From: an archaeon
GTDB lineage: Archaea > Nanobdellota > Nanobdellia > CSSed11-243R1
Length of the DNA: 64,000 bases
Direction: 5' to 3'
Assembly (NCBI GenBank): GCA_024277205.1
Contig: JAJRVP010000015.1
Coordinates: 1,645-65,644, forward strand
Shown: piece after piece, positions 1-63,196 of the stretch
Numbering within the stretch: position 1 is the first letter of the stretch
Layout of the letters: each line of letters opens with the position of its first letter
The notes under the pieces: model-generated
Database searches by the model: none
Told to the model about the DNA's origin: nothing
The model's input: the letters and a program-made list of their open reading frames with translations, nothing else
Made by a program: the position numbers and the translations under genes

Positions 1-460
1 TATACTTTGCTTCTTTTGGATTTGCCCTACTAAGCAACCCAGCAATTATAGAAATCTTTTGATCAACTGCACCAACGCCAGAAACTTTTGCTGTTTTTAA
101 AAAACCATCATAAACTTCTGCAAGAGTTAATTCTTTTGGTTTTATCAATTTGTTTTTGAATTTTCCAGAAAGAGCTTCAGCAACTAATCCTAAATCTCCT
201 TTTTTCTTATAAAGTTCTTTTACTTTTTTAATATCTGTTCCTGTTGCTCTTGCAATTGCTTTTTCAAGCATTCTCTCTGCCATCCCAATCTCAATTCCCT
301 CATAAGCGGGTTTAATCCTCTCCTGGCAGATGTAAATTAACTTGTCAATATCAGAATGTGGGGTTTTCTTAAAAAGCTGGGAAAGAATTTCAAACATCTC
401 TAATCTTTTTGTAGTTTCCTCAAGCTTTTCAAAGTGCTCTGCAACAATTGCAAATTTCAT
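1..460 (-). CDS. ATP-dependent DNA ligase, N-terminal fragment (gene continues beyond window start)
   Basis: Reverse-strand translation from ATG at 458-460 gives MKFAIVAEHFEKLEETTKRLEMFEILSQLFKK..., the typical N-terminus of archaeal/eukaryotic ATP-dependent ligases. The frame runs off the window edge. It lies below the ORF-track cutoff region, so it is not in the provided track. Confidence 0.5.
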   Translation of the reverse strand, partial: MKFAIVAEHFEKLEETTKRLEMFEILSQLFKKTPHSDIDKLIYICQERIKPAYEGIEIGMAERMLEKAIARATGTDIKKVKELYKKKGDLGLVAEALSGKFKNKLIKPKELTLAEVYDGFLKTAKVSGVGAVDQKISIIAGLLSRANPKEAKY

Positions 461-8684: not shown

Positions 8685-9590
8685 ATGGAAATTGTATTTC
8701 TCGGAACTGGCAGCATGTTCCCAACAAAAAAAAGAGCACACCCGAGCATTTTTATCAGAGATGAAAAGATTAAATTTTTATTTGATTGTGGAGAAGGGAC
8801 TCAGCGACAAATGCGTATTGCTGGAATAAGTCCAACAAAGTTAGATTACATATTTATAACTCATTGGCATGGAGACCACACATTAGGGCTTGCTGGCATA
8901 TTTCAATCTCTATCTGCAAGCCAAAGAGAAAGAAAATTAATTGTTTATGGCCCTGTTGGAACAAATGCAAGAGTATCTCATTTACTAAAAGCATTTGCAT
9001 TTGATTTAAAATATCCAATTGAAGTTAATGAAATAAAAATCAAAGAAGGTAAGGTATATAGAATAATTGATGAAAAAGAATTTGCAGTTGAAGCAATGTA
9101 TGTCAAGCATATAATCCCATGTGTTAATTATGCATATATTAAAAAAGGCAAAAGAAAAATAAATCTTGAATATACAAAAAAATTTGGGCTTGTGAGACAC
9201 AAAATTCTTGGAAAACTGCAAAAAGGAGAAACAATTGTTTACAAAGGACACAAAATTACACCTGAAAAAGGAACATACTTAACACCAGATAAAAGAATTA
9301 CGTATATAACGGATACAAATTACTTCAAAGGATTAGAAAAGCTTGCAAAAGATGCAGAAATCCTCATTTCAGAAGGAACTTTTTCAGAAGATTTAGAAAC
9401 AAAAGCTCGTGAATACACCCATATGACTGCTAAAGAAGCTGCAAAGCTTGCTAAAAAGGCAAAAGCAAAAAGATTGGTTTTAACCCATTTCTCACAAAGG
9501 TATAAGGATGTCTCAAAGTTAAAAGAAGAAGCTCAAAAAATTTTCAAAAATGTAGAAACTGCAAATGACTTTGATAAGATTATGATTTGA
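8685..9590 (+). CDS. rnz: ribonuclease Z (tRNA 3' endonuclease), metallo-beta-lactamase fold
   Basis: 301 aa. The HWHGDH motif and the length are typical of short-form RNase Z. Confidence 0.8.
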   Translation: MEIVFLGTGSMFPTKKRAHPSIFIRDEKIKFLFDCGEGTQRQMRIAGISPTKLDYIFITHWHGDHTLGLAGIFQSLSASQRERKLIVYGPVGTNARVSHLLKAFAFDLKYPIEVNEIKIKEGKVYRIIDEKEFAVEAMYVKHIIPCVNYAYIKKGKRKINLEYTKKFGLVRHKILGKLQKGETIVYKGHKITPEKGTYLTPDKRITYITDTNYFKGLEKLAKDAEILISEGTFSEDLETKAREYTHMTAKEAAKLAKKAKAKRLVLTHFSQRYKDVSKLKEEAQKIFKNVETANDFDKIMI

Positions 9591-23450: not shown

Positions 23451-23526
23451 TGGGGTTGGCAGGATTTGAACCTGCGACCTTCGGCGCCCGAGGCCGACGC
23501 TCTAATCCAAACTAAGCTACAACCCC
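23451..23526 (-). tRNA. tRNA-Pro (anticodon CGG)
   Basis: 76-nt cloverleaf on the minus strand: acceptor GGGGUUG/CAACCCC, U8, D-stem GCUU/GAGC, anticodon stem UCGGC/GCCGA with loop CUCGGGC (G37), T-arm GCAGG-UUCAAAU-CCUGC, A73. No encoded CCA. Confidence 0.8.
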
Positions 23527-23570
23527 GCAACCTTTCTTTAAAAAGAAAGCGTATCCAATGAAAAAGATTT

Positions 23571-30433: not shown

Positions 30434-31018
30434 ATGGACAAACCAAATTATGAATATTTTACCAACTCGATTAGATATGTACTCGGGCTGAACAAACAAA
30501 CAATGGGTATAACCTCTCTATTTGAGATTGATAAAAAGTATTTAATTGAAGATTTCATGAAATGGATAAACAAGATAAAAAAGAGAGTCGTAGAGATAAC
30601 TAATTTAGATATAAATCTTAGAGAAAAACTACTATTTGAATTAGAATTATTAGAAAATAAAATCAAACTAATCAAAAAATCAGACATGGAATGGGAGATA
30701 ATTCCATCTTTGATGAATGTTATATCTAATCTTGTAGGATTTGAACATGGAGATATAAATCGAAACTGTCTATTTTACCAAAATTTCAGTCAAGAAATGA
30801 AGAGTCTTAAAAATAAAGGAAAATATCCTACGTATGAGGATATGGCTAAGTTTAGTAAATACAGAATTGAAGAGATCAGCCATATAGTTAACGAACTGCA
30901 CAAGAAGGGATACACCATCTATCAAATACATACAATCGTAAGACTACCACAACTTCAAATTAGAAAGATGCTACAAAAAAGCAGGCTTAAACGCCCGCCT
31001 GCTTCGCTGCTTCCCTGA
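30434..31018 (+). CDS. hypothetical protein (element cargo)
   Basis: 194 aa. The C-terminus runs into the GC-rich island. Confidence 0.3.
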   Translation: MDKPNYEYFTNSIRYVLGLNKQTMGITSLFEIDKKYLIEDFMKWINKIKKRVVEITNLDINLREKLLFELELLENKIKLIKKSDMEWEIIPSLMNVISNLVGFEHGDINRNCLFYQNFSQEMKSLKNKGKYPTYEDMAKFSKYRIEEISHIVNELHKKGYTIYQIHTIVRLPQLQIRKMLQKSRLKRPPASLLP

Positions 31019-31223
31019 GCAGCTCTGAAGCAATCCCTTCTGGTGTTTTCTGCTTTATGCCGAACGCGCTTCTGTAAAGGAAGAATATTGCTTTGCTGAT
31101 GTCCCTGCGAACGAAGGCGTCAACTCTCTCGTCAGAAGCTATCTTGGCGAGGTATCTTGCCTTCGCAAGAATCCTCCTTGCCCTTTTCGTATTTTCATCT
31201 AAAGCAGATTTTTTGTTTTCCAT
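30987..31223 (-). CDS. small helical hypothetical protein encoded with GC-rich codons (compositionally foreign)
   Basis: 78 aa, protein-like amphipathic helices. Codons are GCG/CGC/GGC-rich, unlike the rest of the window. Confidence 0.3.
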   Translation of the reverse strand: MENKKSALDENTKRARRILAKARYLAKIASDERVDAFVRRDISKAIFFLYRSAFGIKQKTPEGIASELLREAAKQAGV

Positions 31224-31224
31224 T

Positions 31225-31345
31225 TAAACCACCTCCGGTGGCGTCTCGGGAGCGTGGTCTCTTAATGCTTTTAGCGAAAGCGCGGTTGCCAACCAAAAGC
31301 TTTAAGTTGGACCAAGCGACAGCCACAAAGGAGGTGGTTGGAAAA
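31225..31345. other. GC-rich structured region upstream of the GC-rich small gene (possible leader or small RNA)
   Basis: Ten-base-pair closing helix AACCACCUCC...GGAGGUGGUU. Internal hairpins include CCAAC-(AAAGCUUU)-GUUGG and GCG-AAAG-CGC. Confidence 0.2.
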
Positions 31346-32831: not shown

Positions 32832-33617
32832 TTATCCACCACTCTGGTAGCCTTTTTTGGATTTCCATGTCCATAAAATCACCAGCAATAGAACTAGTGA
32901 GAAGGGTTTATTAAAGTTGGAAGAAATTTCAAGTTTTAGAAACAAAAATAAAGGAGAATTTGGATCATCCCTGTTTGGATGAATTTCAAGCCAATTAGCA
33001 AGATAAGGAGTTGATGTAATTAATCTTATTCTTCTCATGCCTGTTTTTCCACTCACAATTATTTTTGCTCCATATTTGTCAAAATTTAAATGTTTAATCT
33101 GCATTGTTGCTAATTCACCAATTCTGCAACCAGATTCATAAAGTGTTGAAATGAGTGCTTTGTCCCTAACATGCCCTGCTGCTTCTATCAATCTTTTTAC
33201 TTCTTCAATTGTCAGGATTTCCTCTGGCAATCTGCTTTTTCCATTTTTCATAGTTGTTTTTAACCATTTGATTTTTTCTGGATACTCTCCATTGTTTAGC
33301 CATTTGTAGAATTTCTTTATAGAAATCTTGTGCAACTGCTTTGTCCATTCTGCATAATCCATTCTTTCTATTTTTTGAACCAAATCCAACAAATCTTCTT
33401 TATTTGCTTTGTCCAAATCTTTGTTCAGCCAAGATATTATGTTTTTCAAAAGATAAAGGTATCGCTCCACTCTCACAATGCTGAGCCCTTGTGCAAAGCA
33501 ATCCCTTTGAAATTTTAAAAGCAGTTCCTTGTTTCTCTTTGAGATTTTTCTAGACTTTTTAATTTTCTCAAGAACTTGTCTAAGCCTTTTCTCAGATTCA
33601 TGAATGTCCTGCTTCAT
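32832..33617 (-). pseudogene. tyrosine recombinase/integrase (XerC/XerD-like), C-terminally truncated
   Basis: N-terminal SAM-like core-binding domain and box I with catalytic Arg (ESGCRIGEL) are present. After NSPLF the frame degenerates, and the HxxR and Tyr motifs are absent. Confidence 0.55.
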
Positions 33618-33685: not shown

Positions 33686-33697
33686 AGCCTCGGGTGG
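33686..33697. repeat. att-like direct repeat (right copy, inside tRNA-Thr 3' end)
   Basis: Exact 12-mer AGCCTCGGGTGG. Confidence 0.5.
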
Positions 33698-33806
33698 GAT
33701 TTGCACCCACGACCTTCGCCTCTTTGCAACCTTTTCTTTGGTTGAGCTTTCTTTTCCAAAGAAAGGTCATACCAAGGCGACGCGCTACTAGCTACGCCAC
33801 CGAGGC
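33686..33806 (-). tRNA. tRNA-Thr (anticodon GGU) with about 47-nt intron in the anticodon loop
   Basis: Acceptor GCCUCGG/CCGAGGC, U8, D-stem GCGU/GCGC, anticodon stem UCGCC/GGCGA, T-arm GUGGG-UGCAAAU-CCCAC, U73 (archaeal Thr identity). Exon junctions give loop UUGGUA|A. The exact splice sites cannot be fixed by eye. Confidence 0.55.
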
Positions 33807-41067: not shown

Positions 41068-41104
41068 AATACTCTAAGAAAATATACGTTAATAAAATTA
41101 TGGA

Positions 41105-41373
41105 TGCGGGGGAGGAGATTTTCACCAACCCTTTCTTTTGGTCGAGCTTTTCTTTTTAAGAAAAGGTCGTTTTGAACTCCCGCAGGGATTGGTCACCAAA
41201 GCGCCAAAGGGCACATTAGCTCTAACCCACCAGGTATCCACGACCCCTTCTTTTGGTCGAGCTTTTCTTCCAAAGAAAAGGTCGCCTAAGCCTGGCCCGT
41301 TTGACCGTACCGTGCTCTTTCTTTCCCGAGGGTTTCTTTCTCACGAGAAAGAAGAGCTCTCCGGCACCCCCGC
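41105..41373 (-). tRNA. tRNA-Leu (anticodon UAG), class II, with at least three introns (D-loop, anticodon loop, T-loop region)
   Basis: Acceptor GCGGGGG/CCCCCGC with A73. D-arm CCG-GAGCGGUCAAA-CGG appears after removing a 50-nt D-loop intron. Anticodon stem CCAGG/CCUGG with loop CUUAGG|A. T-stem GGGAG/CUCCU is split by an intron after UUCAAAA. A 48-nt stretch in the variable region is unresolved. Confidence 0.45.
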
Positions 41374-41416
41374 ATAAAACAATAGAAAATAATCCACTAT
41401 AAAAAAGTTGTGAAAA

Positions 41417-45423: not shown

Positions 45424-45601
45424 TGCTCCCACCGGGATTTGAACTCCCGCAACCTTTCCTTTCTTTTGGTGCAGCTTTTCTTTTTGAAAGAAAAGGTGTC
45501 CCGGGTCATCGGCTTTCTCCAGATTTCTTTGGTGCAACTTTCTTTTTAAAGAAAGGTGCTTCGAGAGGCCGACATCCTTGACCGGACTAGACTATGGGAG
45601 C
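45424..45601 (-). tRNA. tRNA-Glu (anticodon CUC) with two introns (anticodon loop and T-arm 53/54)
   Basis: Acceptor GCUCCCA/UGGGAGC with A73. Anticodon stem UCGGC/GCCGA with loop CUCUCGA. T-stem CCGGG/CCCGG is interrupted before UUCAAAU by a 55-nt intron. Overall pattern matches archaeal tRNA-Glu. Confidence 0.5.
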
Positions 45602-45693
45602 GTCCAGTTCTTCCGCCAGCGCTTCTTTTTAAGAAGGGCTGATGGGAGCACAATAAGAAAATAATATAAATATATTAAAAGCTTTACTAATGT

Positions 45694-49389: not shown

Positions 49390-49554
49390 AAAAATTTTAA
49401 ATGTGGAAGTACTATATATATTTTGATAAAACTTTTCCAAAAAGTTTTGTGGAATGTGATCTTGTGAGCTCTGCGTTGCCTCTTCGGAGGTGATGCATTG
49501 GGCACGCAGATTACCCACAATAACATTCTTCTAAAATTAAAATGTTTTAAATGT

Positions 49555-62993: not shown

Positions 62994-63196
62994 AAAAGAA
63001 AGAGCAGTTTATTAATTTAGTCCTTTAACATTTTCTTTTAGTGCAGGTTTTCTTTCTAAAAGAAAAAGTGCAAAGAAAGAGCAGTTTATTAATTTAGTCC
63101 TTTAACATTTTCTTTTAGTGCAGGTTTTCTTTCTAAAAGAAAAAGTGCAAAGAAAGAGCAGTTTATTAATTTAGTCCTTTAACATTTTCTTTTAGT
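62994..63196. repeat. 77-bp tandem direct repeat, 2.6 copies, each with an 11-bp-stem hairpin and TATA-like box
   Basis: Unit caaagaaagagcagtttattaatttagtcctttaacattttcttttagtgcaggttttctttctaaaagaaaaagtg is repeated at about 62994, 63071 and 63148 (partial). It contains ttttcttttag/ctaaaagaaaa as an inverted repeat. Confidence 0.7.

Follow-up and report, generated by a model that had tools for sequence, protein, structure and literature searches.

Introduction

Archaeal transfer RNA (tRNA) genes are described as carrying 'a maximum of three introns' (PMC4033280); likewise, the tRNAscan-SE 2.0 paper gives 'up to three' as the number that a tRNA gene may carry, and this limit is built into the iteration of detection tools (PMC8450103). 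Genes with several introns, introns at non-canonical positions (20/21, 22/23, 45/46, 53/54, 59/60 and others) and families of similar introns are known from Thermoproteales and a few other archaea (PMC4033280, PMC4090602). The nuclear tRNAs of Cyanidioschyzon merolae carry bulge-helix-bulge (BHB) introns in the D loop, at 37/38 and in the T loop, up to three per gene, and one variable-arm intron was reported there (PMC3728597). In Nanoarchaeum equitans, split tRNAs and a heterotetrameric endonuclease have been described (PMC4033280, PMC2761253). Here we analyzed a tRNA-Leu(UAG) gene carried by a 64,000-nucleotide (nt) stretch of DNA of an uncultured low-GC archaeon (assembly GCA_024277205.1, contig JAJRVP010000015.1, positions 1,645 to 65,644), hereafter called the window. 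The gene contains four inserts, termed I1 to I4 from 5' to 3'. Its sequence makes it very probable that this is a single functional gene with four introns of the BHB type, spliced by an endonuclease.

The gene shares features with each of these systems. In the Thermoproteales Pyrobaculum, Thermofilum and Caldivirga (Sugahara et al. 2008), multi-intron genes were likewise missed by ordinary finders, as far as the papers citing that work relate (PMC4033280, PMC4090602, PMC8450103). The present case differs in the number of introns, four against a maximum of three (PMC4033280, PMC8450103), in the host, which is a low-GC DPANN archaeon labelled Nanoarchaeota and not a crenarchaeon, and in having one intron within the long variable arm of a class II tRNA. 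Families of introns thought to undergo 'transposition' (Fujishima et al. 2010, cited in PMC4033280 and PMC4090602) also consist of near-identical introns found across positions and tRNAs, here I1, I2 and I4 of tRNA-Leu and introns of tRNA-Thr, tRNA-Glu and tRNA-Gln. Compared with those families as the citing papers present them, the family sequence is different (one pyrimidine tract, then two purine tracts), a single gene holds two copies with one apparently replacing an older intron at an occupied site, and family-like copies are also present outside tRNA bodies. C. merolae is a eukaryote whose tRNA genes stop at three introns and have no intron family in common (PMC3728597). N. equitans belongs to the same nominal phylum and also relies on BHB-dependent processing; in the present gene, however, the pieces would be joined in cis and not in trans, and introns are far more numerous. 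A full-text literature search of incomplete coverage returned no report of a four-intron tRNA.

Results

Anatomy of the interrupted tRNA-Leu(UAG) gene

The gene forms a GC-rich island in an archaeal context of about 31% GC (Table 1). Open reading frames (ORFs) of the window encode GatD/GatE, XPD, aRF1 and ribosomal proteins L10e and L15e; the NCBI records of the closest relatives assign them to Nanoarchaeota (within DPANN), and several come from hydrothermal-vent samples. The gene begins with GCGGGGG-UG-CCG-GAG and ends with CUCCU-CCCCCGC-A, without an encoded CCA at the 3' end. The acceptor halves GCGGGGG and CCCCCGC with A73 form a perfect 9-nt inverted repeat with a separation of 254 nt. 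The D arm reads CCG-GAGCGGUCAAA-CGG, the anticodon arm CCAGG-CUUAGG↓A-CCUGG (arrows mark splice junctions or predicted cuts) and the T arm GGGAG...CUCCU. The anticodon stem is followed by 48 nt before the T stem (gene positions 145-192), organized as U-GGG-UUAG(33 nt)U-CCC-UGC.

ARAGORN, run on the raw locus with and without its intron option, reports no tRNA, and Rfam gives no tRNA match there, either at the gathering threshold or at E<=10. Splice sites were placed against 15 intron-free tRNA-Leu(UAG) genes having the 20-nt D/anticodon-arm core; those of I1 (GAG↓CGGUCAAA) are unique by this comparison. The core itself, in exon 2, is identical in 17 DPANN tRNA-Leu genes. When the four inserts are removed, the remaining 84 nt (GCGGGGGUGCCGGAGCGGUCAAACGGGCCAGGCUUAGGACCUGGUGGGUUAGUCCCUGCGGGAGUUCAAAUCUCCUCCCCCGCA) are called tRNA-Leu(tag) by ARAGORN and align without gaps to intron-free DPANN tRNA-Leu(UAG) genes (83-85 nt), with 70-75 identical positions. 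The spliced sequence carries the attributes of a class II tRNA-Leu: UAG in a 7-nt loop, U33, G37, A73, a long variable arm and the G18G19 / U54U55C56 pair of motifs. The locus is a real tRNA-Leu(UAG) gene and its interruption is not due to chance, because a strict BHB (central helix 4/4, 1 or more outer pairs, 4 or more inner pairs) is found among arbitrary site pairs at a frequency of only ~1-2.5e-4 and because a regular-expression motif of the intron family has 9 occurrences in the window, compared to 0.03 in shuffles.

A model that had read only the letters of the window had proposed, in what we call the original prediction, one 269-nt tRNA-Leu(UAG) gene with at least three introns, in the D loop, in the anticodon stem-loop and in the T arm. 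The ARAGORN call and the colinear intron-free genes agree with it, the acceptor stem and A73 that it quoted are those found on the minus strand, and the anticodon stem-loop is indeed interrupted by a family intron (I2). Two of its placements needed adjustment: the D-loop insert is present and the D arm appears upon its removal, at a length of 51 nt and not 50; the T-arm intron is also present and lies most likely at 59/60 (T loop UUCAAAU), not after a UUCAAAA loop. Its statement that D-loop introns are rare was too strong, as D-arm sites are documented (PMC4090602) and the D-loop intron is kept in all four orthologs compared below.

Table 1. Coordinates of the tRNA-Leu(UAG) gene and of other features in the 64-kb window
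Feature	Position	Strand	Gene position	Length	Description
TATA-like box	41398..41406	(-)			UUUUUUAUA; ends 24 nt upstream of G1
tRNA-Leu(UAG) gene	41105..41373	(-)		269 nt	class II; 5 exons and 4 introns; G1 = 41373, A73 = 41105
Exon 1	41359..41373	(-)	1-15		acceptor 5' strand GCGGGGG, U8, G9, D-stem CCG, GAG
Intron 1 (I1)	41308..41358	(-)	16-66	51 nt	D-loop 15/16; intron-family member
Exon 2	41285..41307	(-)	67-89		CGGUCAAACGG, G26, CCAGG, CUUAGG; last nucleotide is position 37
Intron 2 (I2)	41236..41284	(-)	90-138	49 nt	canonical 37/38; intron-family member
Exon 3	41222..41235	(-)	139-152		A38, CCUGG, U, GGG, UUAG (variable arm 5' half)
Intron 3 (I3)	41189..41221	(-)	153-185	33 nt	AGCUAAUGUGCCCUUUGGCGCUUUGGUGACCAA; variable-arm loop; outside the intron family
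Exon 4	41171..41188	(-)	186-203		U, CCC, UGC, T-stem GGGAG, UUCAAA
Intron 4 (I4)	41119..41170	(-)	204-255	52 nt	T-loop 59/60; family member, I2 subtype
Exon 5	41105..41118	(-)	256-269		U60, T-stem CUCCU, acceptor CCCCCGC, A73
U-rich stretch	41090..41099	(-)			AAUUUUAUUA; 6-15 nt after A73
tRNA-Glu(CUC)	45424-45601	(-)			missed by ARAGORN and Rfam; introns 45515-45561 and 45444-45499
Insertion at tRNA-Glu 5' end	45602-45649	(-)		48 nt	40-nt family-like element and second copy of GCUCCCAU
tRNA-Thr(GGU)	33686-33806	(-)			48-nt family intron
ORF with phage-integrase domain	32832-33617	(-)			tyrosine recombinase; adjoins tRNA-Thr(GGU)
GC-rich islands	30966-31300				near tRNA-Thr(GGU)
tRNA-Pro(CGG)	23451-23526				
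Hairpin	23527-23550	(-)			GCUUUCUUUUUAAAGAAAGG-UUGC; abuts 5' end of tRNA-Pro(CGG)
Tandem repeat	62995-63196			77 nt x 2.6 copies	100% match; directly upstream of gatD
ORF with metallo-beta-lactamase / tRNase Z domain	8685-9590	(+)			
GC-rich island	49448-49520	(+)			intergenic or small-ORF region; motifs GUGAUC and GGUGAUGC

Junction motifs of the four inserts

Junctions were scored in a register where each strand consists of a 4-bp helix followed by a 3-nt bulge, with the cut after the second bulge nucleotide. All four junctions conform to the archaeal BHB type, two with a complete central helix and two in the relaxed form (HBh'/hBH). I4 has the central helix UUCA/UGAA (4/4), bulges AA↓A and AA↓U, the 5-bp T stem as outer helix and an extended inner helix in which one G is bulged; the unconstrained minimum-free-energy fold of this arm is exactly the BHB. 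The central helix of I3, GGUU/GACC, is also complete (4/4), and is flanked by bulges AG↓A and AA↓U, an outer helix of 1 bp and an inner helix of 5 bp carrying the apical hairpin GUGCC-CUUU-GGCGC. In the relaxed motif of I1, the central helix CCG/CGG pairs at 3/4 positions, the bulges are AG↓A and UA↓C, the inner helix has 6 bp and there is no outer helix. The relaxed motif of I2 pairs at 2/4 central positions and has bulges GG↓C and AU↓A, an outer helix of 6 bp (the 5-bp anticodon stem and G26.U44) and an inner helix of 12 bp. The four motifs and the acceptor stem are compatible within one fold at -107.9 kcal/mol, the unconstrained minimum being -113.2 kcal/mol.

The rule governing these junctions was examined on a set of 19 introns that span 9 contexts (Leu D, AC, V, T59 and T53; Thr AC; Glu AC and T53; Gln T59) from the window and related contigs. 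Between the four intron nucleotides preceding the 3' bulge and the four exon nucleotides preceding the 5' bulge, 63/76 positions pair, compared to just 23-44/76 when the 3' site is shifted by 1-6 nt. The central pairing tracks the exon sequence from context to context (CCGG/[AU]CGG, GGUU/GACC, UUCA/UGAA, UUCG/CGAA, CGCG/CGCG, CUCU/GGAG, CCCG/CGGG), and T-loop A57 versus G57 among orthologs is matched by U versus C in the intron. Excision restores the cloverleaf, as seen in the ARAGORN call and in the pairing of all stem cells (see below), and homologs lack inserts at the predicted junctions: I3 is absent from two orthologs and all four inserts are absent from the 15 intron-free DPANN genes.

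Two other kinds of insert were considered and rejected. Self-splicing group I or group II introns are ruled out by size, the inserts being 33-52 nt long versus a catalytic core of a few hundred nt or more, and by the lack of any Rfam intron match even at E<=10. Guide RNAs with C/D boxes encoded in the intron, of the kind found in archaeal pre-tRNA-Trp, are ruled out as neither the C box RUGAUGA nor the D box CUGA is found in any of 11 introns checked, I3 included.

Orthologs and the variable-arm insert

Orthologs were compared in L011 (metagenome-assembled genome (MAG) AUK188), L004 (AUK136) and L020 (GCA_015522785.1). L011 is syntenic with the window, an adjacent 755-aa protein being 65% identical and another neighbour 88% identical, and its tRNA-Leu gene has the four inserts of the window gene. 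Exons of the two genes are identical at 83/84 positions, the sole difference being a compensated T-loop base; introns are 69-96% identical, with the highest value for I1 (96%). The tRNA-Leu genes of L004, where synteny is given by the 212-aa and DUF4013 neighbours, and of L020, with a gene order as in the window, have only three introns. The position of the T-arm intron is 53/54 in L020 and 59/60 elsewhere. Intron number and sites also differ in tRNA-Glu: one intron in L004, two to three in the window and three in L020. A homolog search with the upstream 212-aa ORF returned nothing but the query itself, and the Auka vent metagenome paper makes no mention of these MAGs or tRNAs.

The comparison supports the 48-nt region as a 15-nt variable arm harbouring a 33-nt fourth intron, because a BHB is formed at sites that restore the ancestral loop, the insert is present in L011 and it is precisely absent from L004 and L020. 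In the ancestral loop UUAGU, the insertion point falls after G and before U; the strict BHB is obtained at the sole site pair (p152/q185) giving back the loop UUAG↓U of intron-free genes. L011 carries a 32-nt I3 ortholog, 82% identical. The uninterrupted variable arms of L004 and L020 are UGGCUUAGUGCCUGC and UGGGUUAGUCCCUAC, respectively, and variable arms are 14-16 nt long in all 17 other tRNA-Leu(UAG) genes retrieved (15 intron-free genes, L004 and L020). I3 thus distributed appears to be an evolutionarily recent gain, common only to the window and its closest relative. A second register, with an intron of 31 nt (41190-41220; p153/q184), also forms a BHB and leaves the loop UUAGAAU, with an arm 2 nt longer; its 86-nt product is also called tRNA-Leu(tag) by ARAGORN. 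The 33-nt register was preferred because its energy is better (-11.7 kcal/mol compared to -8.4 kcal/mol) and because its product is colinear with all intron-free genes. No second copy of I3 was found in the window and the related sequences compared. Scans of metagenomes for more orthologs gave 0 matches with a pattern of exon 2 and the intron start, and 3 matches with an I3/exon 4 pattern, all in unrelated high-GC coding sequence.

Covariation, probable promoter and codon usage

The four spliced orthologs were aligned with 7 intron-free genes and covariation was scored over 23 stem pairs, i.e. 253 cells. All 253 cloverleaf stem cells are standard pairs. Eleven of the 23 pairs change on both sides, which is reached in 0/500 shuffles, and slid controls pair at 35-61%; the covarying stems include some whose halves are parted by introns.

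In the window, L011, L004 and L020 alike, the last position of an A/T octamer lies exactly 24 nt upstream of G1. This spacing is that expected of an archaeal TATA box with a start at or next to the tRNA 5' end, and the box of the window is likely to be a promoter from which the transcript would start at or beside the tRNA 5' end. In N. equitans, too, the promoter and the tRNA 5' end are separated by a short, fixed distance. A TATA-like octamer was also seen to end 23-24 nt before the first nucleotide of tRNA-Leu, tRNA-Thr and tRNA-Glu and of the orthologs in L004, L011 and L020; among the cases examined, the exception is tRNA-Pro(CGG), whose closest TATA-like box stands ~43 nt upstream instead of 24. 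Such spacing would imply near-leaderless tRNA transcripts, which is reminiscent of N. equitans, an archaeon reportedly without RNase P. Downstream of the gene, the U-rich stretch is a possible oligo-U terminator.

CUA codons represent 127 of the 13,806 codons of window ORFs (9.2 per 1000), and therefore a tRNA-Leu(UAG) is needed. Searched with the 20-nt D/anticodon-arm pattern, two species-representative genomes of relatives gave a match in the interrupted gene alone.

A repeated intron family

I1, I2 and I4 are built alike: a pyrimidine tract is followed by a short loop, a purine tract and a linker, then by another purine tract and a tail pairing with the local exon. This plan recurs in introns of tRNA-Thr(GGU) and tRNA-Glu(CUC) in the window and of the Leu, Glu and Gln genes of relatives. 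I1, I2 and I4 are members of a repeated intron family found across the lineage, to which I3 is unrelated. In every family member, each of the two purine tracts is complementary to the single pyrimidine tract and tracks its differences between copies. Only the distal purine tract is needed for the inner helix of the BHB; for the proximal one, possible roles are those of an alternative hairpin, of a switch in folding or a triplex, or of a hairpin recognized at the DNA level. A scan of viral contigs with the family core gave one match, a chance one in a Lys/Glu-rich ORF.

Within the family, I4 of the window is closest to introns of another site. Its identity is 87% with I2 of L011 and L004, including a 37-nt block that matches L011 intron 2 at 100%, versus just 67-77% with its T-loop orthologs in L011, L004 and L023, which are similar to one another. 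The 3' tail of I4 (UGAA) still fits the T loop. The simplest reading of these identities is that, in the lineage of the window, an older T-loop intron was replaced by a copy of the anticodon-type (I2) intron.

Other interrupted tRNA genes and family-like elements

Two family introns interrupt the tRNA-Glu(CUC) gene of the window, one of 47 nt at 37/38 and one of 56 nt at 53/54; each has a central helix of 4/4, and the spliced 75-nt product is called tRNA-Glu(ctc). In the 48-nt insertion at the 5' end of this gene, the 40-nt family-like element stands between the copies of a perfect 8-nt direct repeat, and the conserved promoter region adjoins the first copy. The corresponding site is empty in the L004 and L020 orthologs, and no BHB was found for the 48-nt element in any of 9 equivalent registers. 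The element looks like a DNA-level insertion with a target-site duplication.

Further interrupted genes missed by ARAGORN were noted in relatives: a tRNA-Glu(CUC) with three introns (D-loop, 37/38 and 59/60) at 1539-1814 of L020 and, at ~530-665 of L018, a tRNA-Gln(UUG) in which a family intron of 59 nt occupies 59/60. Family-like sequences were also observed outside tRNA genes in the window. Each 77-nt unit of the tandem repeat upstream of gatD has a family-like element GCAC-UUUUUCUUUU-AGAAAGAAAA-CCUGCAC-UAAAAGAAAA, and the hairpin abutting tRNA-Pro(CGG) resembles the 5' part of the family element. The neighbourhood of tRNA-Thr(GGU), with its integrase ORF and GC-rich islands, may correspond to an element integrated at this tRNA gene. 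Finally, the GC-rich island at 49448-49520, for which Rfam gave no match at the gathering threshold, may represent a small RNA with structure.

Discussion

The sequence suggests the following path from gene to tRNA, in which we infer transcription, the cleavage sites used, ligation and the type of endonuclease. Transcription would proceed from the TATA box ~25 nt upstream and start at or just before G1. The resulting ~270-nt pre-tRNA would fold into four local, non-overlapping BHB or relaxed-BHB motifs (D-loop 15/16, 37/38, variable-arm loop, T-loop 59/60), both 3-nt bulges of each motif would be cut by the tRNA splicing endonuclease and an RtcB-type ligase would join the five exons into an 84-nt class II tRNA. 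After CCA addition, the tRNA would be charged by leucyl-tRNA synthetase (LeuRS) and would read CUA and CUG codons.

Several points weigh against this scheme. The arguments for it (anatomy, BHB geometry, presence and absence of inserts, stem covariation, promoter spacing) all come from DNA sequence, and within the organism's own genome, the search for a second tRNA-Leu(UAG) covered the 64-kb window only. The I2 motif is weak and I1 is without outer helix, and for these reasons cutting either one would call for an endonuclease of broad specificity, of the (alpha-beta)2 or epsilon2 type. Among the 55 window ORFs scanned, there was no tRNA_int_endo match, and neither a splicing endonuclease nor RtcB was found. 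The sole tRNA-processing enzyme candidate seen in the window is the ORF with a metallo-beta-lactamase / tRNase Z domain. For I3, two registers are possible (33 and 31 nt), the isolated arm is most stable at -17.0 kcal/mol and not as the BHB, and its helices show one-sided changes only, without double compensations, because just two genomes carry it.

These features of I3 might indicate a gene with three introns, in which the 33-nt insert stays in the mature tRNA as a structural element embedded in an oversized variable arm of ~48 nt. Taken by itself, the arm folds most stably into a continuous irregular hairpin and not into a BHB, I3 is unrelated to the intron family and the insert is kept in L011 with structure-preserving one-sided changes, all of which would fit such an arm. 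However, a full BHB (central 4/4, two 3-nt bulges, inner 4-5 bp) stands exactly where excision restores the ancestral loop, and short variable arms are the rule in the other tRNA-Leu(UAG) genes retrieved. Moreover, work on Haloferax LeuRS reportedly identified the AG↓U region of the loop as an archaeal LeuRS identity element, and the insert splits that region; a retained arm is thus unlikely. The original prediction had left both options for the 48-nt region, a fourth intron or a novel embedded element, and had proposed to look for BHB motifs at each exon-intron junction and to compare the genes of relatives. A motif was found at all four junctions, and the splice sites and I3 are borne out by L011, L004, L020 and the 15 intron-free genes.

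The two scenarios that the original prediction had named as refuting it, a pseudogene and split halves, did not find support. Four insertions in one gene are extreme, the repeat family also occurs outside tRNA bodies and the genome coverage is that of the window, so that one may think of a decaying pseudogene overrun by repeat-element insertions, CUA being read from another gene copy. Decay is difficult to reconcile with exons that are nearly invariant between the window and L011 while the adjacent protein has diverged, with cloverleaf pairs that are all intact and show compensatory changes across orthologs, with a conserved promoter spacing, with a junction motif in the correct register at each insert and with related genomes that show only the interrupted copy for the 20-nt pattern; we hold a pseudogene to be quite improbable. 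Split tRNAs, whose pieces are transcribed apart and joined in trans as in N. equitans or Caldivirga, are documented in the founding member of Nanoarchaeota (PMC4033280), the phylum given on the NCBI records of the relatives. The hallmarks of such genes are separate loci, own promoters and complementary leader and trailer sequences. Here, 269 nt of one strand hold all five exons, contiguous, colinear and ordered, exon 1 alone is preceded by a TATA-like box at the conserved 24-nt spacing and each insert forms its junction helices in cis, which makes two or more adjacent split pieces extremely unlikely. Combined, these comparisons favour a single gene with four spliced introns.

With four introns, the gene goes beyond the three given as the limit for a tRNA gene. 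It is a numerical record within a known kind and not a new mechanism, because multi-intron archaeal tRNAs are established and their stated maximum is three. The dated series provided by the four orthologs comprises an empty site, a filled one and a case in which the copy of a neighbour has taken an intron's place. More tentatively, and as a possibility on which we would not insist, this may be the first tRNA gene needing four endonuclease splicing events, found in a DPANN lineage with a still-active intron family whose introns might spread as DNA-level mobile elements. If this is true, the gain of I3 after the split from AUK136-like relatives, the overwriting of I4 by a copied neighbour from within its own gene and the copy at the 5' end of tRNA-Glu, with its 8-bp direct repeat and empty sites in relatives, would be direct sequence evidence of DNA-level spread. 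The lineage would also be predicted to have a broad-specificity splicing endonuclease. Because ARAGORN and Rfam are blind to these genes, genomes of the lineage would be scored as devoid of tRNA-Leu(UAG) and tRNA-Glu(CUC), and tRNAs missed in this way would distort the estimates of completeness and decoding capacity for the lineage.

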